From positions 780,001-812,000 of the forward strand of contig NZ_OZ034918.1 in NCBI RefSeq assembly GCF_964030745.1: DNA of 32,000 bases, written 5' to 3'. The notes under the pieces were generated by a model. The model searched no databases. It was not told where the DNA came from and saw only the letters and a program-made list of their open reading frames with translations. Positions 2 through 23,207 of the stretch are shown piece by piece; the stretch's first letter is position 1; each line of letters starts with the position of its first letter. Position numbers and translations under genes: made by a program. The DNA comes from Candidatus Saccharimonadota bacterium (GTDB lineage: Bacteria; Bacteroidota; Bacteroidia; Cytophagales; Amoebophilaceae).

Positions 2-655
2 GCAACCGATATTGAAGTAGAGATCATTTCTGGTGTAGAGGAGGCTACTTTAATTTATCATGGCATTAGCGCCTGCTTTGCATTAACAGATGGCCATGGT
101 TTAATTATGGATATAGGAGGTGGGAGCGTTGAGTGCATTATCTTTAATCATGTAAAACCATTATGGGAAAGAAGTTTTGCACTGGGTATACGGCGTGTTG
201 CTGCTCAATTTACCTATAGTGACCCTATTACACCCAGGCAAGTAGCCCTTTTAGAAGACTATTACCGCAGCATTTTACCCCCTCTTTTTGTTGAAATGAA
301 TCGCTACAAGCCTAGCCAACTCATTGGTAGTTCTGGCGCCTTCCGTACCTTATTGATGTTGTATAACTGCCACTACAACCTGCCAGCTATTGAAATAAAT
401 AGTGGCATAAAAAGGGTTTCTACAGAACAATTTTTTAAAATTTATCAAGTTATACTAACAACTCCTGTAGATGTTTGGAAAAGCAAGCTTGCTATTGAGC
501 CTGTTTTCTTAAAGCTCATTCCACTATCCGCCAGCCTTATTAAGATCATTCTTGAAACATGCAACCTGCAGGAGATTGTTATTTCAGGTAACTCTCTAAG
601 AACAGGTTTATTTATTCGAGAATGGAACCGTTTAAGACAAGAAAAGCGTATTTAA
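2..655 (+). CDS. Ppx/GppA-family phosphatase (exopolyphosphatase / pppGpp phosphohydrolase-like), C-terminal ~217 aa; 5' end outside window
   Basis: Frame is open from nt 2. Translation ATDIEVEIISGVEEATLIYHGI...LIMDIGGGSVECIIF carries the ISGxEEA and DIGGGS-x-E motifs typical of the ASKHA-fold Ppx/GppA family. Stop at 653-655. Confidence 0.8.
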   Translation, partial: ATDIEVEIISGVEEATLIYHGISACFALTDGHGLIMDIGGGSVECIIFNHVKPLWERSFALGIRRVAAQFTYSDPITPRQVALLEDYYRSILPPLFVEMNRYKPSQLIGSSGAFRTLLMLYNCHYNLPAIEINSGIKRVSTEQFFKIYQVILTTPVDVWKSKLAIEPVFLKLIPLSASLIKIILETCNLQEIVISGNSLRTGLFIREWNRLRQEKRI

Positions 656-921
656 GGTTGGCTATATTGGACCCTATAAGATGCCATCTGCCATAGCATC
701 ATGTAGTATCCCATCATTTTCTTTGGATTGTTTCGGCAATAATTGTAGATTAATGTGGTTGTTTCTTTTTAATACAACGCTTTATTATTTTTGCTATGAT
801 ATCATTTAAAACTGGTTTTGCCATTGCAATAGTACTATATATGATTGCAATGAATTATTTGTTGTTCCATTACGTACGAGACAAGTACTTTCGTAAGTAA
901 ACATTCAATCAGAATGTCCAT

Positions 922-1058: not shown

Positions 1059-1422
1059 GTTACAAAATCTTAATAAGCAACGACCCTTTATAGCGCTTAA
1101 GCAACCTAAGCCCATACACTTTCCTAACTTTATCCTTTCTATCACGATTCACCCTATTTATAAAATCAGCTTAAAATCAAAAAATAATCCTATAAAGGTT
1201 GGTTGTTGTGTTGGGCAATTGATAGGTGCTGTTTTTTGCTTACTAACATAATTTTTAAAATAAATATCTATATGGCTATTTATTTTCGATTAATATTGTT
1301 AAATTTTAAGTGTGTTTATTATTTAGCATATTATTTGAAACATGCAAATAATAGTATAGAAAAAAGTTGGTTGTAAGCTATTTTGTAGTTCTTGCAATGC
1401 TAAGCATATATCTAAGAAAGGC

Positions 1423-2832
1423 ATGGAACATAAGAAAGTTTTGCTACTGTGGCTGCTAATATTGTGTAGCTGTAACACTGGCGTTAAGCAAGATATAGCT
1501 CCTGGCCCCCCATCGTTTTGTTTGAAGGTCCATACCATGCTTAATGATCCTAGTAGGGGTTGCAATGCTGATTCTATGTCTGCTACTGATTCTCATGCAT
1601 ACCTTAGACGTGCTGCTGATTTAATCTCCCTTTCTACCGATAAATTTATTTCCAATTTTTGTTCCGCTATTGATGCTGCCCCCTCTGTTGTTGCTGATGA
1701 TTTGACTACTGCTTTTCATTCTGCTGCTGGTGTTAGAACTGCTGCTGATGATCAAGCTAAAACTGCTCGTGATGCTACCAGTGCTGCTCAGCAGGAGGCT
1801 GACACTATTGCTGCTGCTCAGAAGGTTGCTGCTAGCCATGCTAATGCTGATGCCCGTGCTGATATTGCCCGTGCTGATACTACTGTTGCACGTGCTTTTG
1901 GGGATAATATTGTTGCACCCGCTCTTTACGTTCGTGCTGCTTCTAAATGTGCTGTTGCTGCTGCTGCTGTTGCTCGTGCTGTTTCTGCTTATACTGCTGT
2001 TGCTGCTGCTTATGCTGCTGCTGCTCGTGCTGCTTATGTTGCTTATACTGCTGGCTATGTTACTGCTTTTGCTCAAGTTGCCCGTGCTGCTGCTAATGCT
2101 CGTGCTGCTGCTGCTACTGCTCATGATTTTGCTGCTGATGCTGCTCATTTTGTTGCTGCTACTCATCATTATCTTGCTAGTGCTGAAAATGCTGCTGCTG
2201 CTGCTGCTTGTGCTGCTACTTGTACTGCTAGTATGCGTTCTGTTGCTTCTGTTGCTGTTGCTCGTGCTGCTGCTACTGATTCTGTTTCTATTGCTGCTAC
2301 TGTTGCTGCTGGTATTCGTCATGCTGCTGATGCTGCCCGTGATGCTTCTAATGCTGCTGAGACTGCTGCTGCTGATGCTCGTGCTGCTTCTGCCTCTGCC
2401 TCGGTTGCTGCTGCTTATGCCTCTTCTGTCCGTGCTGCTAATGCTTCTCTTGCTGCTTTTGAGGGTGCTTGTCGTGTTGCACGTGCTGCTAGAGTGTGTA
2501 TTCGTTGCTGCTTTAATATCCTTAGTGCTTCTTCTGCTCCTGCTAATAACGCCCGTCGTCTTGCTTCTCTTCGTAACTACACTGAATCTGCCAATGCTGC
2601 TTCTGCTGCTGTTGATGACGGTTATGCTGCTGTTGTCTCTGCTCATGCTGTTGCTTGTCATGAGGCTTCTCTTGCTCGTCGTGAGGTTGCTGCCGGTTGT
2701 GTTGATCCTGATGTTGTTGCTGCCGTTGCTGCTGCTACTCATTTTGTCTCTGCTGCTTACATTGCTGTTGATTTTTGTGCGCATATTCAACGTTTGCAGC
2801 GAGGCGCTGCTGCTCATTTTCCTGTTCGGTAG
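1423..2832 (+). CDS. Alanine-rich putative lipoprotein, low-complexity, NNT-codon tract
   Basis: N-terminus MEHKKVLLLWLLILCSCNTG has a basic n-region, a hydrophobic core and a lipobox-like LCSC. About 400 aa dominated by Ala follow. This frame was preferred over the overlapping +2 (Leu-rich) and antisense (Ser-rich) open frames because only it has a signal peptide and extends beyond the biased tract. Confidence 0.6.
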   Translation: MEHKKVLLLWLLILCSCNTGVKQDIAPGPPSFCLKVHTMLNDPSRGCNADSMSATDSHAYLRRAADLISLSTDKFISNFCSAIDAAPSVVADDLTTAFHSAAGVRTAADDQAKTARDATSAAQQEADTIAAAQKVAASHANADARADIARADTTVARAFGDNIVAPALYVRAASKCAVAAAAVARAVSAYTAVAAAYAAAARAAYVAYTAGYVTAFAQVARAAANARAAAATAHDFAADAAHFVAATHHYLASAENAAAAAACAATCTASMRSVASVAVARAAATDSVSIAATVAAGIRHAADAARDASNAAETAAADARAASASASVAAAYASSVRAANASLAAFEGACRVARAARVCIRCCFNILSASSAPANNARRLASLRNYTESANAASAAVDDGYAAVVSAHAVACHEASLARREVAAGCVDPDVVAAVAAATHFVSAAYIAVDFCAHIQRLQRGAAAHFPVR

Positions 2833-3175
2833 TTATTAAAACTATATAAAAACATTGCCTATCTATTGCAATAAAGTTATGGTATAGTATGTCGTATGTT
2901 CACCATTGTGGTAATAAAAGCTATTGTGTGCTCCGATAAAGGAATGCGGTGCTTCAGTAAAACTTGGGTCTTTGAGTACGCTGCTTTTCAGTGGATCAGA
3001 AAAATAGCTTGTTTGAAGCTCATGCAGTGGGCGATTTCTGTTTTTTTCGATGCAAAATAGATCTTTTTATTATTTTTATTCTGTGCCCAATCTTTTCTAA
3101 GCGGCTAAAAATAGGGTGGTATATTAAATAATACATTCGCAAAAATGCTATTCTGTTTAATAGTTAATAACATTC

Positions 3176-3318: not shown

Positions 3319-3564
3319 ATGAACTTATCGATCATATCGCCTACTGGTAAACTTTTTAATGGAGAGGTGCATAGTGTAATGTTGCCAGGTACACTTGGTC
3401 CATTTCAGGTGCTTCCCAATCATGCTCCTGTTGTCAGTAGTTTAACAGCAGGGAAGATCACTTATACGGTTGGAGCAACATCATCGTCCGTTTCAGTCAG
3501 TAGTGGTTTTACCTCAATAGCTGATAACCAGGTTATGGTAGTTTGTGAACCTATCGAATGGTGA
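3319..3564 (+). CDS. atpC: F0F1 ATP synthase epsilon subunit (short Bacteroidetes-type, 81 aa)
   Basis: MNLSIISPTGKLFNGEVHSVMLPGTLGPFQVLPNHAPVVSSL matches the conserved epsilon N-terminal beta-sandwich pattern (V.P...F.G.V..V.LPG..G.F.VL..HAP....L). Confidence 0.85.
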   Translation: MNLSIISPTGKLFNGEVHSVMLPGTLGPFQVLPNHAPVVSSLTAGKITYTVGATSSSVSVSSGFTSIADNQVMVVCEPIEW

Positions 3565-3977: not shown

Positions 3978-4538
3978 ATGCTACATCATTGCACTAGTAC
4001 TATATTATCTGAGGCGAATCAATACATTCAATCTAAGGCGAATGTAAAGGGGCCGGCTATATCCTTGGCGATTCTGGGCAATTCGCAAGCAGAAAGCAAG
4101 TCCTCGAAAGGCATTATGATGCGATTGGTGGATATCACTTCTGTAGAATTGTGCAGCAATCCTACGCAGTATGTGCCACAGGGCGATGGTTTTATTGTAC
4201 GCAAAGTGCCAGAAGCATTTAATCTTTATTTTTTGTTTTCTATTGACTATAAGCCATCTGACCTGTTAAAAAATTTAGAATTACTTGCTTATGTGGCAGC
4301 ATTTTTTCAAACTAAATCACACTTTGATGGCTCTAATACGCCTATTTTACAGGAAATAGGGATTGAGAGTTTTTCTGTCGAGTTGGTTAAAATGACTCCA
4401 CCAGAGAAGGCCATGCTTTGGGAAAGCTTACATGCTCCTTATAGTCCTTCTTTACTCTATAAGGTGGGGCTGATATTTATAGGAGATGCTACGATGGGTT
4501 TAAAGGTAGTATCAGCATTTTCATCACGTGAAAGGTAA
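3978..4538 (+). CDS. DUF4255 / Pvc16-Afp16 N-terminal-domain-like protein (CIS tail cap/terminator candidate)
   Basis: 186 aa, first gene of the CIS operon, 5 nt before the next ORF. The size, the position ahead of the sheath, and the pattern (AISLAILGN...IMMRLVDITSVE...PSLLYKVGLIF) resemble DUF4255 proteins that open Bacteroidota CIS loci. Judged by eye only. Confidence 0.5.
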   Translation: MLHHCTSTILSEANQYIQSKANVKGPAISLAILGNSQAESKSSKGIMMRLVDITSVELCSNPTQYVPQGDGFIVRKVPEAFNLYFLFSIDYKPSDLLKNLELLAYVAAFFQTKSHFDGSNTPILQEIGIESFSVELVKMTPPEKAMLWESLHAPYSPSLLYKVGLIFIGDATMGLKVVSAFSSRER

Positions 4539-4543
4539 TCGTT

Positions 4544-5404
4544 ATGGCATTTACCACAAAATTATTTCGAATAACTATTTCAAATAATTACTATAAGTCT
4601 AATAATGCCTGCAATGATTTCGATATAGAACCAACCAGGTCTACCGCTTCCTGGATGGCTGCACGCAGGGTGCGCATGTTGCGTCACCTAGATGGCATAG
4701 AGCTGATATGGCTTTCGCAGGATTATGATCATCCGTTGGAGTTGTTTCAAAAAAAGGCAGATGGCATTACCCTTTCTTTTGTGATGACATTAAAGAATAG
4801 CCAAGCATTGAATCTTTTGGAATTAGAGTCTGGTTATTCAACAGGCCAAGTCTACCATTTGTATAATTGGCATGCACACCATCATAATTGGCTGCACAGC
4901 AAACCCTTTATGGGTAGTGTTGATTTGGTTAAGATTGAGGAAGTAGCCCATTACCCTACCGGGCCAGGTGGGAATGTTTTTGCGCTGATTGATATAGATC
5001 TTAACCATTTAGGCCAAGCGATATCCAAGCAAAAAGAGCCTCTTTTTGTTGAGCCTATTACCTATACCATTAAGGTTCAAAACCGCTCCACTTTTTGGAG
5101 ATATTATTTAGTAGATACCAACAAGCGGCTTGGTGGATCTTTGGGTATTCTCTCTAAAGGAGATGCCTCTTACTTTGGCAAAGTAAAGGTTTCTACAGAG
5201 TTTCCTAATACCTATTGTGCAGAATCTACCATGCCCATGGAGCTTTGTGATCAATATGATCGTTCTTTTTCACTTTGTAAACTTGGTGGCGAAAAAGGTG
5301 CAACCATATTATTAGAGAAATTGCCTTATCCTACTTTTGATTCGCTCAAAAAGGATAAGGTTAATAAAAAGAAACACTATAGTGATATAGTTGTATATGT
5401 TTAG
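4544..5404 (+). CDS. Hypothetical protein, CIS-operon-associated (286 aa)
   Basis: Long ORF tightly packed between the DUF4255-like and sheath genes. No recognisable motif. Confidence 0.6.
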   Translation: MAFTTKLFRITISNNYYKSNNACNDFDIEPTRSTASWMAARRVRMLRHLDGIELIWLSQDYDHPLELFQKKADGITLSFVMTLKNSQALNLLELESGYSTGQVYHLYNWHAHHHNWLHSKPFMGSVDLVKIEEVAHYPTGPGGNVFALIDIDLNHLGQAISKQKEPLFVEPITYTIKVQNRSTFWRYYLVDTNKRLGGSLGILSKGDASYFGKVKVSTEFPNTYCAESTMPMELCDQYDRSFSLCKLGGEKGATILLEKLPYPTFDSLKKDKVNKKKHYSDIVVYV

Positions 5405-5450
5405 TTTAAACTTAATTTTAACTGTTATATAATTCATAAAATCAAATAAA

Positions 5451-6938
5451 ATGGCTGAAAATTTAAAAACTCCCGGCGTGTACATCGTCGAGAAGGATAC
5501 GGGTGCCAACGCCGTGGTTCAAGTATCAACTGCAGTTCCTGCTTTTATAGGTTTCACTGAAAGGGCTGAAATTAATGGGAAGTCGTTTCATATGAAGCCG
5601 GTTCAGATCTCTTCACTTTCTGAATATGAGTTGTTTTTTGGAGGACCAGCAGTCCCTGTCTATACCATTAAGGAGGTAACCAGTGGGGATAAAGATTTGG
5701 TGATGAATGGCAAATCTTATCTCATGGAGCAGAGTGCAAACTCTACATTTTATCTATATAATAGCTTGAAGCTATTCTTTGATAATGGTGGTGCAGATTG
5801 TTTTATTGTCTCTGTTGGTCAATATGGTGATCCAAATGTACAGTTAGAAATTACACCAGATGTATTCAAACAAGGTATAGATACGCTAGCTGGAGAAGAG
5901 GTGCCCACTATGTTGTTAATGCCAGACTCACTCTTACTAGATGAAGAAGATGCCTCTTACTATGCGGTGCAGACCTATGGGTTGGCACATTGTGGCAAGT
6001 ATCTGAATAAAGTCGCATTATTTGATATATGGGGTGGCAACAAGGAATTATCTATAGAGGATAAAAATAAATATGTCAACAGGTTTCGTGAATATATTGG
6101 ATTAGATAATTTGAGTTATGGTGCCGCCTATTATCCATGGGTTAAAACAAACATTATCCCATTGAATAGTATTGATTATAGAAATTTTGATCTAGAGTCG
6201 CTCAAGGGTGTATTACAAGAAGAGCACAAAGCAATGCTCTCTAATCTAATGAGCGCTTCTACAGAGAAAGAGAAAGTCTATTGGGATGCTGGGCTAAAGA
6301 ATACCAGTAAGGAGTACAAATTGCTGCGTAAAACTATTGCAGATCGGTTAAATATTCTTCCAGCTGCTCCAGCTATGGCTGGACTTTACACCAGAACAGA
6401 TAAAGCCAGAGGGGTATGGATTGCACCAGCCAATCAAAACTTAAACTCTGTGGTGGAGCCGATGGTTAAAATTACCCATGAAGAGCAAGAAGCACTGAAT
6501 GTAGATGGTATTAGCGGGAAATCGATCAATGCCATTCGGACCTTTAAAGGAGCGGGTGCTGCAGTCGTTTGGGGAGCGAGAACCTTGGCTGGCAATAGTC
6601 CAGAATGGCGGTATATTAACGTCAGAAGGTTGTTTATTCTGATTGAGCAATCTATCAAAAATGCAGCATTTTCGGTTGTGTTTAGGCCAAATGTTCCTGT
6701 TACTTGGGCAGTTGTACAGGGCATGATTTCCAACTTCCTAACCAATCTTTGGCGGCAAGGTGCTTTAGTAGGTGCAAGTCCTGCAGAGGCATTCACCGTA
6801 CTTTGTGGGTTGGGTGAGACCATGTCTCAAGATGATGTAAATGAAGGCATCATGCGTATTTCAGTAAAAGTATCGGCTCCTAGACCAGCTGAGTTTATTG
6901 TGATCACCTTTGAACAAAAAATGGGTGCAGATGGTTAA
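5451..6938 (+). CDS. Contractile tail sheath protein (Afp2-4 / Pvc2-4 / phage tail sheath family)
   Basis: N-terminus MAENLKTPGVYIVEKDTGANAVVQVSTAVPAFIGFTERA and C-terminal VWGARTLAGNSPEWRYINVRRLFILIEQSIKNA...FRPNVPVTWAVVQGMISNFLTNLWRQGALVGASPAEAFTVLCG are the hallmark sheath N- and C-terminal signatures. Confidence 0.93.
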   Translation: MAENLKTPGVYIVEKDTGANAVVQVSTAVPAFIGFTERAEINGKSFHMKPVQISSLSEYELFFGGPAVPVYTIKEVTSGDKDLVMNGKSYLMEQSANSTFYLYNSLKLFFDNGGADCFIVSVGQYGDPNVQLEITPDVFKQGIDTLAGEEVPTMLLMPDSLLLDEEDASYYAVQTYGLAHCGKYLNKVALFDIWGGNKELSIEDKNKYVNRFREYIGLDNLSYGAAYYPWVKTNIIPLNSIDYRNFDLESLKGVLQEEHKAMLSNLMSASTEKEKVYWDAGLKNTSKEYKLLRKTIADRLNILPAAPAMAGLYTRTDKARGVWIAPANQNLNSVVEPMVKITHEEQEALNVDGISGKSINAIRTFKGAGAAVVWGARTLAGNSPEWRYINVRRLFILIEQSIKNAAFSVVFRPNVPVTWAVVQGMISNFLTNLWRQGALVGASPAEAFTVLCGLGETMSQDDVNEGIMRISVKVSAPRPAEFIVITFEQKMGADG

Positions 6939-6954
6939 ACATGCACCTGTGTGT

Positions 6955-6981
6955 ATATAGGGGGTATTTTCCCCCCTATAT
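6955..6981 (+). terminator. Perfect 10-bp stem hairpin just after the sheath gene (possible attenuator/partial terminator)
   Basis: ATATAGGGGG (6955-6964), a 7-nt loop, then CCCCCTATAT (6972-6981), followed by TTATT. Confidence 0.4.
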
Positions 6982-7033
6982 TTATTAAAGATTATTGCTT
7001 ATAATTTGAAAAATATTTAAAACTGAAATAACC

Positions 7034-7498
7034 ATGGCTGATAACTTATTAGTACCTGCTATAGTCCATTTTAATTTGGGCTCCTCAAAGGTTAGTATAA
7101 CGGACTACCATATAGCAGTTACCATAGAAAATGGATCCGAGTATATTAGATCAGTTAATGCACAAGGTAAGTCTGCTTATGCTATATGTAAAGGAGGAGA
7201 GATTCGACAAAAGGCTGATATTAAAGTTTCTATACTTAAAACACCAGATGGAAAATTTGATGATGATATTAAAAAAGTAGAAAAAAACTTAGATGCCAGT
7301 AAGGAAAATGATCCTAAAAAATATGTGGAAAATATGCTTTTTAGTTTTGCAACCAATGATGATAAGCCATTCGCACATATACAATTCCAAGGGTATGTTT
7401 GTGAGAAGAGCGAGGATGTAGATCCTGAAACTCAAATACCTGTAGTGACAGCTGAACTTGCTGTTTATGATCCAGTTAGCTTTGTGATTAAACAATAG
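7034..7498 (+). CDS. Small CIS-operon protein (154 aa), possible divergent tube/Hcp-like component
   Basis: Position between the sheath and the canonical tube gene, and tube-like size. No motif recognised by eye. Confidence 0.5.
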   Translation: MADNLLVPAIVHFNLGSSKVSITDYHIAVTIENGSEYIRSVNAQGKSAYAICKGGEIRQKADIKVSILKTPDGKFDDDIKKVEKNLDASKENDPKKYVENMLFSFATNDDKPFAHIQFQGYVCEKSEDVDPETQIPVVTAELAVYDPVSFVIKQ

Positions 7499-7572
7499 CG
7501 TACTGCATTTATGATTGAGTTTTTAGAATATATTAAGTAGTTTAACTAACTAGAATTTCACAGAAAGATATT

Positions 7573-8016
7573 ATGCAAAGAGTAACTATTGATTATAAAC
7601 ACTTTAATAAAGCAGGTTTTGATAGTAAAACTTGTAGTGTTTTGGTTGTTGGTATACCAAATCAAAAAACATCGACCCAGGCAACCGTATATGATACGGC
7701 ATCCTCTGCACCACTTCGTTATAATCAACGCAGTGCTCCAAAAATTGCAACTTTCACCGTAGATTTCTTACCCCGTATAACGAGCAAAGATTTGTTATCA
7801 AAAGCACATGATTTGGTTAAAGAAGTGTCTGGGGATAAGTATAATCCAGAACCATTTACCCTTTGTGTACATAAAAAAGACGGATCAATAGATACAAAAA
7901 AAACGCTAAATGATGTGATCGTACAAAGCGTAAGCTTGTTTTTGGATAGGAAGAACGAAACTACAGGTGAAAAGGGGTATGTTCGTATACGCTTTACTTT
8001 ACAAGGATTAGTATAG
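7573..8016 (+). CDS. Small CIS-operon protein (147 aa), possible divergent tube/Hcp-like component
   Basis: Same arguments as 7034-7498: co-directional, short gaps, tube-like size. Confidence 0.5.
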   Translation: MQRVTIDYKHFNKAGFDSKTCSVLVVGIPNQKTSTQATVYDTASSAPLRYNQRSAPKIATFTVDFLPRITSKDLLSKAHDLVKEVSGDKYNPEPFTLCVHKKDGSIDTKKTLNDVIVQSVSLFLDRKNETTGEKGYVRIRFTLQGLV

Positions 8017-8063
8017 CGAGATAAAAAGTAATCATATGATGTTTTTAACCTTGTGCTGATTTT

Positions 8064-8513
8064 ATGGCTGATTTTAATTTAGTCCACTCGCATTCTTTTC
8101 AAGTAGAGGTATTGGGTGTAACAGATGGTAGTTCCCCTGAATATTTCTATAAGATAGAAGGGTTAAATAATTCTTTGAATATGGAGCCCTATCTGCCTGG
8201 AGGAGCTAATAGGCCCTATTATAGAGCCAATGCATGTGAGACTACTGATTTAATCTTGACTAGGCCATTAATAGAGGGTAAAACGAAAATGACCGTTTGG
8301 TGCGAGGAGGCCATTGATAAAGGCCTTTTTAAGCTTACACAAGCCCATATTTTGGTCCTTAACAAGGAAGGCAAGATTCTGGCACAGTGGAAGATAGAGG
8401 ATGTCTATCCAAAGGGCATAGCCATTACGCCATTCCAGTTAAATGGTCAAACAGATCTTGGAATAGGGGAAACCATTACGATTGGCTATTCTAGGCTTGT
8501 ACGGACAAAGTAA
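8064..8513 (+). CDS. CIS tail tube protein (T4 gp19 / Afp1-Afp5-like)
   Basis: HSFQVEVLGV...FYKIEGLNNSLNMEPYLPGGANRPYY....DLILTRPL...VWCEEA...ILVLNKEGKILAQWKIEDVYPKGIAITPFQLNG...IGETITIGY follows the conserved tail-tube pattern (F.V.I.G...F..vsGL....e..ey.eGG.n......g.....nl.L.R........W.....). Confidence 0.8.
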   Translation: MADFNLVHSHSFQVEVLGVTDGSSPEYFYKIEGLNNSLNMEPYLPGGANRPYYRANACETTDLILTRPLIEGKTKMTVWCEEAIDKGLFKLTQAHILVLNKEGKILAQWKIEDVYPKGIAITPFQLNGQTDLGIGETITIGYSRLVRTK

Positions 8514-8562
8514 TATCGATAATGCTTCATCTGCTTGGTCTACAAAATTAATTTTATTAATT

Positions 8563-8736
8563 ATGTCTGTTGTAATTAAAGAGCTGCTGATCCAGCTTAA
8601 AGTTTGTGAACCCAATAACCAAGTGGACAATGCTAAAAACTTGCCAAGTAATTTTGCAATGCACCCTACGGAGCAGCAAAAATTGGCGTTAGAACGAGAT
8701 TTTTTACGCCTATTGGAAGACCGGGAAGCAAGGTAA
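8563..8736 (+). CDS. Afp6/Pvc6-like mini-protein (DUF5908-like, 57 aa)
   Basis: The internal ATG at 8563 gives MSVVIKELLIQLKV..., resembling the M-x-I-E-I-K/R-E-L-x-I-K/R-x-x-V start of DUF5908 proteins. Those sit between the tube and tube-initiator genes in CIS loci. The longer ORF from 8482 would overlap the tube gene. Confidence 0.5.
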   Translation: MSVVIKELLIQLKVCEPNNQVDNAKNLPSNFAMHPTEQQKLALERDFLRLLEDREAR

Positions 8737-8757
8737 AATAAACTTCTTTCTATAGTT

Positions 8758-10119
8758 ATGAGTAAAGTTAGTAAACTAGTTATTAAAGCATGTAGTGACA
8801 ATAAATTTTCCTCTTTTACAGGGGAATTTATTACATCTATTAATCCAGAAAATTTAGCGATTAAAAGTGCAGTGTCCTACCATGTGCCTGAAGGAATGTC
8901 GGGTGCTAACTTGCTTAAATACCGTGGTTCTCCTCCAAAACTACTCTCCTTTAGTCTGTTGTTTGATAATACAGGGATTATGCCTGGTAGCAATGCCATT
9001 GCTGTAATGGAACAGGTCAAGCAGTTACAAGATGTTGCCTATAGTGTCCATAAAAAGAATAATGCCCCTAATTACATTCGTGTGATTTGGGGGCAGATTG
9101 ATTTTAAAGGCAGGTTGGTAGCGCTAGACATCGTTTATTCTATGTTTCAAGTAGATGGTACACTGGTTAGAGCAGAGGCGCATATATCTGTATTAGAGGA
9201 GCTGGTTCCTTTAGGTAAGGGAAAAGCTGCTGCAGGTGTAGACAGTAACTATACCAAGCCATCTGGTGCCAATGCAACTGCAAGTCGTAAGGTGGCTGCT
9301 AGTCAAGCTACATCTAACCAGGAGGCTTTTGCCCCAACGCCTAATGGTATGAGTGGCGCCTATAGCGGTGCACCACCTGGTGCCTACGATGGAGGTCCTG
9401 ATGCCATCTATCATGGGTCGAATGGCACTGGGGGAGCGGTTTATAGTGCCAGCACGGGTGCTACACCTTCTGGTGGAGGTCTCTCCACTGTTGGCGCGGC
9501 TCCTTCGAGCAATTATGATGCTGGTTATGACGCTGGTACTGGTCGTTCTGCTAGTTATAGTGCTAACCCTGGTGCTGGTCCTTCTGGTAATAGCTTAAAA
9601 GGCGGTGTTGCGGGTAATGGACCTGGTGGCAGTGGGGGGGGCGTTGGGGGAGGAGGTCATGGGCCGGCTCTAGGGGCAAGTCAATCTGGAAGTGCTGCAA
9701 GTGGTGGATCACTAACTAGTGGTTCAGGGCAGTCTGGTCGGACTACTCCTCCTGCAGAAGTAGGTGGCCATTCCAGTAAAGCTGGCACAAGTGGTAGTAG
9801 TCATGGCGTGGGCAGTGGTGCGGCTGGATCTACAAAAAATAATGTGGCTGCTGGATCAGTGAGTGGTGGAGCTGGAGGGAAAGGTAGTGGTTTGAAAGCG
9901 GGTAGCATTGCAGCCGCTGGTGTAGCGGGTAGTGCTGCTGCAGCTGCAGCAGCTGCAAATGGAGCAGATAGTTTGCGTAAACTAAAGGCAAATGTTAATC
10001 TTATGCAGACAATGAAAAATAAAGTCAGTTTCTGGAGAAGGCTCAAAAATTTTGCTAAAAAAACATGCCCTAAGGCATATGATGCTGGAAAAAAAGTAGT
10101 AAAATCAAGCGGTTTTTAA
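8758..10119 (+). CDS. Afp7-like CIS tube-initiator N-terminal domain fused to a ~250-aa Gly/Ser/Ala low-complexity region and a basic C-terminal tail
   Basis: Residues 1-150 (KLVIKA...F.GEFITSINPENLAIKSAVSY...LLKYRGSPPKLLSFSLLFDNTG......VMEQVKQLQDVAY...NAPNYIRVIWGQIDFKGRLVALDIVYSMFQVDGTLVRAEAHISVLEE) fit the conserved tube-initiator pattern (NPe.l.......y......f.g..p..l...l.fD.......v...v..L........pp.v.f.WG...f.g.l.sl...y..F...G.P.RA.v...l.E). Confidence 0.7.
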   Translation: MSKVSKLVIKACSDNKFSSFTGEFITSINPENLAIKSAVSYHVPEGMSGANLLKYRGSPPKLLSFSLLFDNTGIMPGSNAIAVMEQVKQLQDVAYSVHKKNNAPNYIRVIWGQIDFKGRLVALDIVYSMFQVDGTLVRAEAHISVLEELVPLGKGKAAAGVDSNYTKPSGANATASRKVAASQATSNQEAFAPTPNGMSGAYSGAPPGAYDGGPDAIYHGSNGTGGAVYSASTGATPSGGGLSTVGAAPSSNYDAGYDAGTGRSASYSANPGAGPSGNSLKGGVAGNGPGGSGGGVGGGGHGPALGASQSGSAASGGSLTSGSGQSGRTTPPAEVGGHSSKAGTSGSSHGVGSGAAGSTKNNVAAGSVSGGAGGKGSGLKAGSIAAAGVAGSAAAAAAAANGADSLRKLKANVNLMQTMKNKVSFWRRLKNFAKKTCPKAYDAGKKVVKSSGF

Positions 10120-14403: not shown

Positions 14404-15249
14404 TTAGGTGGGTATTAGGAATGTTTTTCTTGTAATAAGGCGTAGATTATGGCTAATAGCACATAGAATAGCATTGAGTTTGTCTCCCAATATTCCTTTC
14501 AAGTAGTTAACCGCTAATTTACCATCAGATTTCATATGACCAATATGTGGTTCAATAGCAGATCTTCTTTTTAGTGCTTTTTTGAGACTAGGCGTTATAC
14601 CTCTTTTAGAGCCGCTTATAAATATATTACATTGACTATTAGGTATATTATGACCTCTGTAACCCCTGTCTACGAAGACGTGTTTTACCTGAGTACCAGA
14701 TAGTTTTTCTGCTTGTAATAAACTTCTATGCAAGGTATGTCCATCATATTCATTAGGATGTAAAGCTTCCGTTGATACAATCAAGCCTTGTTTATGGGTG
14801 AGCGTAAATTGCACCTTACAACCATACTCATAGGGATTTAAAGCCTTACCTTTACTTACGCAGTAAACAGCAGGTTCATGGATACTATAGACTTTATTTT
14901 TACTTTTTTTTGATTGGTTAATAATCCTTTTACTTATAGAAAGCAGATGTCTAAACTGGGTGCGTATTGCTTCATCACACGATTGTATAGAGCGTTCTAC
15001 ATCTCTTACCACCCGACCAAGATAGTTTTTTAATGTTTTAACGCCTTTGGCTAAACGTTTAAACTGTTTAGCATGTGCATAGCCATCTACTTTACGTTTG
15101 ATAGCTGGCCCTAGACGTTGGTAGGTTTGACGGAGTTTAACGCCTGTTTTCTTAGCTATAGCCACTAGTTTTTGTCTAGCCTTATTAAGCAACGAAGAAT
15201 CAGTTGGATAGCGAATATTTTTCTCCATTACAGTAGTGTCGGATATCAC
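14404..15249 (-). CDS. IS5-family transposase, DDE catalytic part, orfB (-1 frame relative to orfA; frame open from 15282)
   Basis: DTTVMEKNIRYPTDSSLL (first D), VFVDRGYRGHN (second D) and RRSAIEPHIGHMK (E-x6-K of the YREK signature). Confidence 0.8.
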   Translation of the reverse strand: MISDTTVMEKNIRYPTDSSLLNKARQKLVAIAKKTGVKLRQTYQRLGPAIKRKVDGYAHAKQFKRLAKGVKTLKNYLGRVVRDVERSIQSCDEAIRTQFRHLLSISKRIINQSKKSKNKVYSIHEPAVYCVSKGKALNPYEYGCKVQFTLTHKQGLIVSTEALHPNEYDGHTLHRSLLQAEKLSGTQVKHVFVDRGYRGHNIPNSQCNIFISGSKRGITPSLKKALKRRSAIEPHIGHMKSDGKLAVNYLKGILGDKLNAILCAISHNLRLITRKTFLIPT

Positions 15250-15272
15250 TTTTTCAAGTTCTTTTGGGCAGA

Positions 15273-15683
15273 CTACTTTTTTTTAATGGCTAATTGTATA
15301 GTCATCGATAAGATCTTATTAAGACCTTCTGCTCCCAATCTTTGACGCCAACGAGTTAATGAACTAGGGTGACAAGCTGCCTTAATCTGAAAATAATCAT
15401 AGCCACAAAGGTATTGCCAATAAGGATTTTCTACCCATCTAGCAACTACTTGCTCATCAGAAACTTGGTACATATGACTGATAATGAGTAGGCCTACAAT
15501 CAAACGAATAGGTAAAGGAGGTTGACCGGGTCCATAGCTAAAGCTGCGGTCTAAATCTGATTCTAAGGATTGCCAAGGAATGGAATCAGCTAACTGAAAT
15601 AAGGCGTGTTGGGGATTAAGAATCCCAGATAAGCGTTGCTCAAAAAGCCTACCACAAGAATGATTTATCCTCTTAGATTTCAT
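15273..15683 (-). CDS. IS5-family transposase, N-terminal part (InsH N-terminal/DUF772-like), orfA
   Basis: LFEQRLSGILNPQHALFQLADSIPW...PGQPPLPIRLIVGLLIISHMYQVSDEQVVARWVENPYWQYLCGYDYFQ is the typical IS5-family N-terminal domain. It ends in ...AIKKK-stop inside an A8 run. Confidence 0.8.
   Translation of the reverse strand: MKSKRINHSCGRLFEQRLSGILNPQHALFQLADSIPWQSLESDLDRSFSYGPGQPPLPIRLIVGLLIISHMYQVSDEQVVARWVENPYWQYLCGYDYFQIKAACHPSSLTRWRQRLGAEGLNKILSMTIQLAIKKK
15277..15284 (-). other. A_AAA_AAG slippery site linking transposase orfA and orfB (-1 frameshift site or homopolymer indel)
   Basis: Minus strand reads GCC ATT AAA AAA AAG TAG. A -1 slip on A_AAA_AAG continues as GTA GTC TGC CCA..., giving ...AIKKKVVCPKELEKVISDTTVMEKNIRYPTD. 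Confidence 0.6.
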
Positions 15684-17921: not shown

Positions 17922-20864
<2,943 letters not shown>

Positions 20865-20963
20865 TTTTTTCTTGATTTTGCTTTTACAGTAGTCAATTAC
20901 ACTCTTGTTTTAGGGTGGTAAATGGTTGATCTATCAACCTATAAAATTATAGTATTAAAAATA

Positions 20964-21072
20964 AAGGCGACGAAAGCGCTGGTGTGCACCTCTTCCCATT
21001 CCGAACAGAGCAGTTAAGCCCAGCAGCGCCGATGGTACTTCGGTAATACGCGGGAGAGTAGGTAGTTGCCAT
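20964..21072 (+). rRNA. rrf: 5S ribosomal RNA
   Basis: GGCGACGAAAGCGCTGGTGTGCACCTCTTCCCATTCCGAACAGAGCAGTTAAGCCCAGCAGCGCCGATGGTACT...GGGAGAGTAGGTAGTTGCC, with 5' GGCGAC pairing to 3' GTTGCC. Confidence 0.92.
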
Positions 21073-21088
21073 CTTTTTATTTTTTTTT

Positions 21089-21161: not shown

Positions 21162-23207
21162 ATGTTAACAATCCCTCTGTTTTTACACACATTTTTTCTT
21201 AGCATATCGCTTCCTGCTATACAGGATAAGCTAGAAGCATTAAAAAATGATCCTACCATTACAGAACTTACTTTTTTTAAAGGGCGTATAAAAGTCGCTG
21301 AAGTTGAGGCCCTTGCGCAGGGGCTAAAGGGTACCCAAATTACAAAGCTTGTGTTTGCTTGCGAGTTTGTAGGAGATGCTGGCGCTGAGGCGCTTGCAGC
21401 AGTGTTGAAAGATACAAAAATTACAACCCTTGAACTATATTGTACGAGCATAGGAGACGCTGGCGCGAAGGCACTGGCAGAAGGATTAAAGGGCTCGCAC
21501 GTTACCACACTTAACCTTGATTCTAATCTCATACATGCTGCTGGCGCTGAGGCGCTTGCAGCAGTGTTGAAAGATACAAAAATTACAACCCTTGACCTGA
21601 GTGGTAATTCTATGGAGGCTGCTGGAGTTAATCTTCTTATACAAGGATTAAAGGGTACGCAAGTTAGAACGCTTGCCTTGAATGGCAATCATATGGGAGA
21701 CGCTGGAGCTAGTTTTCTTGCCCAAGGATTAAAGGATACGCAAATTACAAAGCTTGACCTGAGTATCAATCACATTGGAGAAGTTGGCGTTAGGGCTCTT
21801 GCACAAGGATTGAAGGATACGCAAGTTACAGAGCTTGATCTGAGCCGCAATAAGATAGGAGCCGCTGGCGCGAAGGCACTTGCACAACTGTTGAAAGATA
21901 CCAAAATTACAACCTTGAACCTGAGTCATACCAACATAGGAGATGCTGGTGCTGAGGCACTGGCACAAGGACTGAAAGATACCCAAGTTACAACACTTGA
22001 CCTCAGTAACACCAATGTAGGAGACCTTGGTGCTAAGGCCCTTGCACAAGGACTCCAAGGTACACAGGTTACAACACTTAACCTTGGTAAAACTAAGGTG
22101 GGAGCTGTTGGCGCTAAGGCCCTTGTGCAAGGATTAAAGGATACACAAATTACAGAAGTTGGTATTTATGAATGGCACTATTCTGATGTGCAATCTGCAA
22201 AAGGGTTAGTGATAACACTTGATCTTAGCCATCCTGATGTAGGGCCTGCTAGGGTTCGGGTACTTACAAGAGGGTTAAAAGGTACCCGAATTACAAGGGT
22301 TAATTTGACTGATAATCACATAGGAAATGCTGGCGCTAAAGCCCTTGCGCAAGGATTAAAGGATACTCAAATTATAAAGCTTGACCTTGATAAAAATGGA
22401 ATAGGAGATACTGGTGTTAAGGCCTTGGTGGAGGGATTAAAGGATACGCAAGTTAGGGAATTTATCCTTGCTAATAATTTTATAGGAGCAGCTGGCGCTA
22501 AGGCCCTTGCCAAAGGGTTAAAGGATACTCAAATTATAAAGCTTGACCTTGATGGTAATAGGATAGGAGACCCTGGTGTTAGGGCACTTGCATCAGTGCT
22601 CAAAGATACTCAAATTAGGAAGATTAACCTTCGCCGCAATGTAATAGGAGAGGCTGGAGCTGTGGCACTTGCACAAGTACTAAAGGATATTCCAATTACA
22701 ACACTTGACCTGACTGATAATGTAATAGGAGAGGTTGGCGCTATAGCACTTGCACCAGTGCTCAAGGATACTCAAATTACAGAGCTTAACCTTACTGGCA
22801 ATTATATAGGGGATGCTGGCGCTATAGCACTTGCACCAGTGCTCAAGGATACTCACATTACAGAACTTTGCCTTAGTCACAATGATATAGGGGATACTGG
22901 CGCTATGATACTTGCACCAGCGCTCAAGGATACTCAAATTACAGAGCTTGACCTTGGTAGTAATTATATAGGGAATGCTGGTGCTAGGACGCTTGCACAA
23001 GGATTAAAGCATACGCAGATTACAAAGATTAGTCTTTATAATAATAACATAGGAGTTGTTGGTGCTAGAGCCCTTGCAAAGGGGTTAAAGGAGACGCAAG
23101 TTAGGGAGATTAAGCTTGATAGCAATAATATAGGTGCCGATGCGGCTAAAGTCCTTGCACAAGAATTTAAGAACTGTAAAAGCAAATTGAAATTTAGCAT
23201 ATTTTAG
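21162..23207 (+). CDS. Leucine-rich repeat protein, RNI/NLR-like class, ~24 tandem 27-residue repeats (candidate host-interaction effector)
   Basis: 81-nt periodicity. Repeat consensus TQITxLDLSxNxIGDAGAKALAQGLKD. Two units share a 56-nt identical block (21378-21433 and 21540-21595, 162 nt apart). One degenerate unit lies near 22140-22270. Confidence 0.85.
   Translation: MLTIPLFLHTFFLSISLPAIQDKLEALKNDPTITELTFFKGRIKVAEVEALAQGLKGTQITKLVFACEFVGDAGAEALAAVLKDTKITTLELYCTSIGDAGAKALAEGLKGSHVTTLNLDSNLIHAAGAEALAAVLKDTKITTLDLSGNSMEAAGVNLLIQGLKGTQVRTLALNGNHMGDAGASFLAQGLKDTQITKLDLSINHIGEVGVRALAQGLKDTQVTELDLSRNKIGAAGAKALAQLLKDTKITTLNLSHTNIGDAGAEALAQGLKDTQVTTLDLSNTNVGDLGAKALAQGLQGTQVTTLNLGKTKVGAVGAKALVQGLKDTQITEVGIYEWHYSDVQSAKGLVITLDLSHPDVGPARVRVLTRGLKGTRITRVNLTDNHIGNAGAKALAQGLKDTQIIKLDLDKNGIGDTGVKALVEGLKDTQVREFILANNFIGAAGAKALAKGLKDTQIIKLDLDGNRIGDPGVRALASVLKDTQIRKINLRRNVIGEAGAVALAQVLKDIPITTLDLTDNVIGEVGAIALAPVLKDTQITELNLTGNYIGDAGAIALAPVLKDTHITELCLSHNDIGDTGAMILAPALKDTQITELDLGSNYIGNAGARTLAQGLKHTQITKISLYNNNIGVVGARALAKGLKETQVREIKLDSNNIGADAAKVLAQEFKNCKSKLKFSIF

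Follow-up and report, generated by a model that had tools for sequence, protein, structure and literature searches.

The window analysed here is a 32,000-nucleotide piece of a Cardinium chromosome (NZ_OZ034918.1, positions 780,001 to 812,000; G+C content 40%), and our subject is an open reading frame (ORF) of 469 codons at positions 1423-2832 of its forward strand. This gene sits between ppx and an Afp-like contractile injection cluster, and most of its codons have the form NNT (N, any base), GCT for alanine being the commonest. On balance we favour the view that it is an orphan Cardinium lipoprotein gene whose mature part came from an in-frame GCT expansion behind a pre-existing signal peptide and was subsequently diversified. 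The sequence is real, since an independent assembly (Logan SRR15069915, hereafter L001) carries it at 99.8% identity.

Third-position T (T3) accounts for 78.1% of the codons of the whole ORF; the window's 24 other ORFs have 26-48%, and 44% is expected from the amino acid content of the protein and the background codon usage. GCT supplies 139 of the 156 alanine codons (40% in the background), and 79% of the non-alanine codons of the tract also end in T. The coding strand is A-poor, and the period-3 spectral signal reaches 156, compared with 11-41 in four other genes. Thus, the measurements bear out a first-pass annotation, made from the sequence alone, which had described a gene written almost entirely in NNT codons dominated by GCT and had proposed positional frequencies and period-3 spectra as a check. 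Its estimate that nine in ten codons end in T from about position 1600 was too high for that region as a whole (T3 of 82.5% over 1600-2832) and is surpassed within a 120-codon core, codons 181-300 (1963-2322), where T3 reaches 96%. Codons 1-59 are of near-ordinary composition (T3 of 47.5%). Lys, Glu, Gln, Met and Trp, also reported as rare, together make up 4.6% of the mature part and 19.2% of the other proteins of the window. A C6 homopolymer lies at 1506-1511, in the N-terminal part of the gene, and is identical in L001; comparison with L001 and with the homologue in Cardinium sp. TP (L003) gave no evidence of phase variation at this site.

Three of the six frames are open because T recurs at every third base, and NNT, NTN and ANN codons cannot be stops. 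Within 1600-2832 these frames contain 1, 2 and 1 stops, at the terminus or the edges, and the other three contain 26-47. The Leu-rich +2 frame and the Ser-rich antisense frame announced by the annotation were both recovered as ORFs at the predicted lengths. Three open frames are, however, no independent evidence of anything: their openness is automatic, so that a long ORF says little here about whether a gene is present.

The N-terminus of the encoded protein passes a rule in the style of PROSITE PS51257 (Lys or Arg within the first seven residues; an uncharged h-region; [LIVMFWSTAG](2)-[LIVMFYSTAGCQ]-[AGS]-C; Cys at residues 15-35) with K4, K5, the stretch LLLWLLILCSC and Cys17. The +2 and antisense frames fail the same rule and frame +1 alone passes it, as the annotation had anticipated. 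Codon positions 1 and 2 are not independent (chi2 113, 9 df, p=3e-20): CGN (Arg) occurs at 3.4 times expectation, CCN (Pro) at 0.17 times and GGN (Gly) at 0.27 times, and the bias runs in the same direction in the L003 copy. Hydrophobicity recurs with a period of 3.40 residues (P<0.001 over periods 2-8, none of 1000 shuffles reaching the observed power; 3.38 in the core and 3.42 in the C-terminal part), although 3.4 codons equal 10.2 bp and a periodicity of the DNA is not fully separable from one of the protein. The mean helical hydrophobic moment stands 3.75 standard deviations above that of shuffles (z=3.75).

AlphaFold2, run on the single sequence, predicts a near-continuous helix at low confidence (mean predicted local distance difference test, pLDDT, of 53, with residues 290-460 at 60-77). 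The structure prediction proposed by the annotation thus gave, together with the periodicity, an all-helical and amphipathic protein. A Foldseek search of the PDB found nothing beyond generic or designed helical bundles (E>0.04), and no fold was assigned. Selected RNA structure was rejected as the cause of the composition, as the mRNA of the core folds less well than its shuffles (z=+2.8). Scans for promoter and terminator consensus sequences gave counts at the chance level, with no Bacteroidetes -7 motif upstream of the gene. The codon coupling, the periodicity and the lipobox therefore point to a translated frame +1 encoding an amphipathic, Ala-rich helical lipoprotein, the only reading under which they make sense, and they indicate that selection at the protein level acts in this frame. 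From these features of the sequence we infer that the protein is translated and localised as a lipoprotein, probably lipid-anchored in the envelope. The features of the locus are collected in Table 1.

Table 1 Features of the gene and its surroundings (positions of the window)
Feature	Positions	Strand	Remarks
ppx	107-655		5' of the gene
Small conserved ORF	796-900	+	34 codons, MISFKTGFAIAIVLYMIAMNYLLFHYVRDKYFRK; 5' of the gene
Start context	1412-1422	+	CTAAGAAAGGC directly before the ATG; nearly identical in L003, together with ATGGAACATA
Predicted signal peptide with lipobox	1423-1473	+	MEHKKVLLLWLLILCS followed by C; Cys17 codon at 1471-1473; PROSITE PS51257-style rule
N-terminal mature stretch	1474-1599	+	Near-ordinary codon composition
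NNT-coded mature region	1600-2829	+	37% Ala; predicted all-helical and amphipathic; T3 82.5%
Core	1963-2322	+	120 codons; T3 96%; no recognisable higher-order repeat
By-product open frame	1730-2839	+	NTN codons, Leu-rich, 369 aa; not regarded as a gene; no lipobox, no Pfam match
By-product open frame	1621-2817	-	ANN codons, Ser-rich, 398 aa; not regarded as a gene; no lipobox, no Pfam match
ATP-synt_DE_N ORF	3319-3564	+	81 aa; PF02823; 3' of the gene
Afp-like contractile injection cluster	3978-10119		Pvc16_N, sheath, gp19-like tube, CIS_tube (Pfam); 3' of the gene

The gene has a narrow distribution. Only the target protein itself was matched by a word-index search of 5.8 billion clustered proteins and by phmmer against 1.84 billion representative proteins, and Pfam, NCBIfam and the PDB sequences gave no match. 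L001 differs from the window at 3 of 1410 bases (H3Y, I13M and T439A; three nonsynonymous, no synonymous), none of them within 1501-2500, and the overall density of differences equals that of the flanks. The start codon, signal peptide and lipobox are intact in both assemblies and in frame with the Ala-rich part. Cardinium sp. TP carries a homologue at the same site, which shares the start context, the lipobox, a motif after the Cys (C-x-T-G-[VI]-[KR]-Q-D-x-x-P-G-x-x-S-F) and a block ADARA..ARADT-x-VARAF. This copy is 74% NNT and 39% Ala, is broken by at least three frameshifts, and spans about 270 codons against 469 in the window. The length polymorphism that the annotation suggested looking for is therefore present, and it amounts to the length turnover expected of a sequence born by slippage. 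The frame of the sp. TP copy breaks within a few codons downstream of the region matching C6 (CCCGGGG there), and its signal peptide has a 1-nt deletion.

Rates were taken from a few anchor blocks only, because elsewhere the global alignment with sp. TP is not reliable. In these blocks 5 of 15 four-fold sites differ, which corresponds to the background (p-distance 0.38); synonymous T is therefore under no visible constraint there. Over the global alignment, identity to the sp. TP copy at the three codon positions is 0.62/0.59/0.66. The strain hypervariability foreseen by the annotation was seen neither in this comparison nor in that with L001. In the Nabis strain (L002) and in cBcalN2 (L004), the small ORF and the atpC-like ORF that flank the gene are both present, with about 1 kb between them that lacks it. 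The other loci and one metagenome locus, found through the downstream atpC-like ORF, have different upstream genes and no homologue; an exact look-up of the target protein matched no contig. A neighbour-joining tree of the sheath gene barely resolves the window, L002, L003 and L005 (a near-polytomy), and gain and loss of the gene are not separable on it. In the sequences compared, then, this is a lineage-restricted orphan gene, found only in the window strain, L001 and sp. TP; it is dispensable, as one strain carries it with frameshifts and others lack it.

To model the decay of a GCT repeat in this genome, we took a general time-reversible (GTR) substitution matrix from four-fold sites of the flanking genes, comparing the window with seven Cardinium loci (p-distances 0.33-0.43). 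The leaving rates were 1.18 for G, 0.77 for C, 0.44 for A and 0.37 for T, so that T is lost two to three times more slowly than G or C. At t=0.33 a decaying (GCT)n tract is predicted to retain G at position 1 in 0.53 of codons, C at position 2 in 0.66 and T at position 3 in 0.83; the values observed over 1600-2829 are 0.55, 0.50 and 0.83. The remaining third-position A/C/G are predicted at.03/.08/.06 and observed at.04/.09/.04. Under this model the contrast between position 3 and positions 1 and 2 is, gene-wide, largely what a decayed GCT tract should show in this genome. What the annotation had called a fixed third position would thus mostly reflect the slow loss of T, with the core alone keeping T beyond the model. 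The first of its two proposals, a degenerated (GCT)n expansion encoding an Ala-rich helical protein, is supported by these fits at positions 1 and 3, less well at position 2, and by the predicted helical, amphipathic, lipobox-bearing product.

Consequently, our model is as follows. A GCT (Ala) triplet tract would have expanded in frame behind a pre-existing signal peptide and lipobox, and point substitutions would then have diversified it, visibly so chiefly at the first two codon positions. Because the genome is AT-biased and loses G and C two to three times faster than T, third-position T would be the slowest to decay. Selection in frame +1 would have kept the helix-compatible V, S, D, T, R, H, Y and F and removed Pro and Gly, leaving an Ala-rich protein that is long, alpha-helical and amphipathic. 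The NNT ancestry would account passively for two further traits, the rarity of K, E, Q, M and W and the opening of two additional frames. The core, the central 360 bases, would be the youngest or least decayed part, quickly diversified at the amino acid level.

Several observations weigh against this model. Position 2 is more decayed than predicted, as noted above. In the core, a T3 of 0.96 gives t of about 0.07, yet G at position 1 has fallen to 0.62 and C at position 2 to 0.58; positions 1 and 2 have thus changed about 3.5-6 times beyond the prediction based on T3, and by our estimate an excess of about 1.5-2.5 times persists when T3 is set to the limit of its binomial error. The longest run of GCT is 6, the placement of Ala is random (runs test, z=-0.13), and self-similarity equals that of codon-shuffled controls. 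As no trace of a repeat is left, the (GCT)n ancestor is reconstructed from composition only. Moreover, the GTR matrix assumes reversibility, and the four-fold sites are perhaps not fully neutral. Finally, the integrity of the ORF is weak evidence, as a rough estimate gives P of about 0.24 that none of the 72 non-NNT codons would be a stop by chance alone. Tandem Repeats Finder reports arrays in the tract that match at 59-81%, with many overlapping in-phase copies; higher-order repeats were nevertheless rejected, since the codon-shuffle control shows that they reflect composition only.

The rival that survives best holds that the locus is non-functional, a decaying triplet tract behind a relic signal peptide that stays open only since NNT cannot be a stop. 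The automatic openness suits it, as do the lack of a homologue among 1.84 billion representatives, the lack of a Pfam or NCBIfam match, the absence of the gene from the syntenic site in the Nabis strain and cBcalN2, the frameshifts in sp. TP (at least three), the three nonsynonymous and zero synonymous differences from L001, and the nearly equal identity of the three codon positions in the comparison with sp. TP. Against it stand the strong avoidance of Pro and Gly and the enrichment of Arg in both copies, the significant amphipathic periodicity, the intact ATG, signal peptide and lipobox in the Ala frame of two assemblies, and 59 N-terminal codons of ordinary composition without a stop. We regard this explanation as unlikely.

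A little less probable still is that third-position T is actively maintained, either by in-phase short-patch gene conversion or by selection keeping the other frames open, so that slippage-induced frameshifts would still give long products. The core speaks for it, with 96% T3 despite diversified positions 1 and 2 and no detectable repeats, and the ancestor of the window and sp. TP copies, back-calculated with the decay model from T3 values of 0.83 and 0.74 and the four-fold distance, would have been about 85-96% NNT. NNT coding is also not general for low-complexity sequence here, as the tail of the CIS_tube protein has a T3 of 0.40-0.53. Across strains such Gly/Ser/Ala tails have ordinary T3 (0.30-0.53, with parts reaching 0.62-0.68 in L002, L004, L005 and L006), and we rejected NNT as a general trait of Cardinium low-complexity sequence. 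Against maintenance, four-fold sites in the alignable blocks evolve at the background rate (5/15), and the flanks of the gene fit neutral decay. The frameshifts in sp. TP reach stops and cut the product short, so that the proposed stop-proof property gives no rescue; the mRNA of the core forms less structure than its shuffled versions, and the alternative-frame products lack a signal peptide or domain. It seems about equally doubtful that T is actively held as a restricted-alphabet device, or that the core is a domain just being born from a triplet repeat under very strong positive selection (omega of about 3-6 over 120 codons).

It is highly improbable that another frame encodes the real product. 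The +2 frame (T at position 2; hydrophobic L/V/I/F/M) and the Ser-rich antisense frame are both open, for 369 and 398 codons, and seen from +2 the fixed second position with variable positions 1 and 3 looks like purifying selection. Neither has, however, a signal peptide or lipobox, a Pfam match or a plausible architecture; we know of no protein class that resembles 369 residues of almost only L/V/I/M/F without loops; and the coupling of positions 1 and 2 and the 3.4-residue polar/apolar periodicity make sense in +1 only. The annotation's second proposal, a stop-proof design such as an NNT library or the NNY-type outcome of a diversity-generating retroelement (DGR) or another hypermutation aimed at codon positions, is weaker still: it has in its favour only the pattern of diverse positions 1 and 2, uniform position 3 and A-poor coding strand, and it is largely refuted, as the 32-kb window encodes no reverse transcriptase (Pfam, ORFs of at least 100 aa), the window and the compared loci hold no A-periodic or similar second copy (a repeat search found similarity within the tract only), near-identical strains show no difference in 1501-2500 whereas 4 kb away they diverge by 10-20% over a tract, and typical DGR variable regions are about one-tenth as long as this 1.2-kb region.

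We return, then, to a GCT expansion that was diversified into a lipoprotein. It would provide a natural example of a triplet-repeat expansion that became most of a protein behind a signal peptide, and it joins in one gene a restricted, NNT-encodable alphabet, three by-product open frames and measurable selection at the amino acid level. It also advises caution, because no special mechanism is needed for a pattern of fixed position 3 and variable positions 1 and 2 if the last base of the ancestral codon is one shielded by the mutation bias of the genome. The near-perfect T periodicity of the core is the remaining puzzle. For Cardinium biology, the gene adds a strain-specific, probably envelope-anchored protein beside the injection-system genes.

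Those genes form a phage-derived secretion system described for Cardinium (PMC3486910), and the sheath protein of the window (5451-6938) is 95-98% identical to the sheath of named Cardinium genomes. The orphan gene is not kept alongside the cluster, being absent from the syntenic site in the Nabis strain and cBcalN2 and without a homologue in the other 13 loci. It was therefore rejected as a component of the Afp-like or T6SS-iv (type VI secretion system, subtype iv) injection cluster, with which it is not conserved, and nothing links it functionally to the injection system. The stand-alone ORF at 3319-3564 consists of the N-terminal beta-sandwich of the ATP synthase epsilon subunit (PF02823) alone; such an ORF stands directly 5' of Pvc16_N in 13 of 17 Cardinium/Amoebophilaceae loci, with no match in L010-L013, and may be a co-opted component of the cluster. 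Two small genes inside the cluster (7034-7498 and 7573-8016), without a match in Pfam or NCBIfam, differ by 10-20% between the window and L001. Successive 500-bp segments across 7001-8100 contain 52, 106 and 11 differences, against 0-5 elsewhere between strains that are otherwise 99.8% identical, a pattern that marks out a sharp tract of apparent recombination or diversification. The CIS_tube protein (8758-10119, + strand) ends in a Gly/Ser/Ala-rich tail of about 300 aa with a basic C-terminus, in which a GGVAGNGPGGSGGG motif is conserved across Cardinium strains.

On the other side of the orphan gene, the small ORF at 796-900 lies within a block of 185 bp showing 83-88% identity in the Nabis strain and sp. 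TP. Its protein is conserved at 94-97% in these two and cBcalN2, the substitutions falling mostly at third positions by eye. An NCBIfam search gave no match to this ORF, which is likely an unannotated gene for a small membrane protein. Further downstream in the window, a transposase broken into two ORFs (14404-15683, - strand; DUF772 and DDE_Tnp_1) is probably a frameshifted or degraded insertion sequence. Genes for 23S and 5S rRNA lie within 17923-21074, with no 16S rRNA or tRNA gene in the whole window; this suggests a split rRNA operon, an arrangement shared by many reduced symbiont genomes. Directly after them, a 681-aa protein full of LRR_6-type leucine-rich repeats (21162-23207, + strand) is a candidate host-interaction effector.

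Finally, we compared the gene with known systems. DGR variable regions and NNT/NNY libraries resemble it in their diverse positions 1 and 2, restricted position 3 and avoidance of stops; unlike DGR variable regions, it has no reverse transcriptase or template in the window and no strain hypervariability, and it is about ten times too long. In Trifonov's model of (GCU)n triplet expansion, early coding sequences reportedly consisted of GCU and its point-mutation derivatives, which is also the codon repertoire seen here; the expansion in Cardinium would, however, be a recent event in one symbiont lineage, and the gene illustrates the model without being evidence for it. Type I fish antifreeze proteins and 'alacoil' helices are Ala-rich and amphipathic, the antifreeze repeat being of 11 residues (3.67). 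The orphan protein shares with them an Ala content above 35%, a predicted continuous helix, periodic polar residues and a biased choice of Ala codon. Its period of 3.40 differs from the 11-residue repeat, it shows no match in sequence or fold (best PDB E>0.04), and it is a predicted bacterial lipoprotein. With bacterial lipoproteins, the substrates of Lgt and LspA, it has in common a basic n-region, a hydrophobic core and L-C-S-C with Cys17; its lipidation is predicted, and its mature part, unlike theirs, matches no family.

The closest known kind is the slippage-born, codon-homogeneous low-complexity coding region. Passages in PMC10124876 and PMC3523016 tie codon homogeneity to an origin by slippage and to youth. 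The Cardinium gene resembles such regions in its domination by one codon (GCT), its purely period-3 signal, the differing lengths of its orthologues, its fast divergence and its restriction to one lineage. It departs from them in that its tract is 410 codons long with about 60% of the codons no longer Ala, that no tandem structure remains while 79% of the non-Ala codons keep T, and that the tract, instead of being inserted into a globular protein, accounts for almost all of the mature product. By the usual signs of slippage, it thus has a homogeneous dominant codon and length polymorphism, and lacks residual tandem repeats and long runs. No new mechanism is called for, and the gene is best placed as a new orphan representative of slippage-born low-complexity coding regions.

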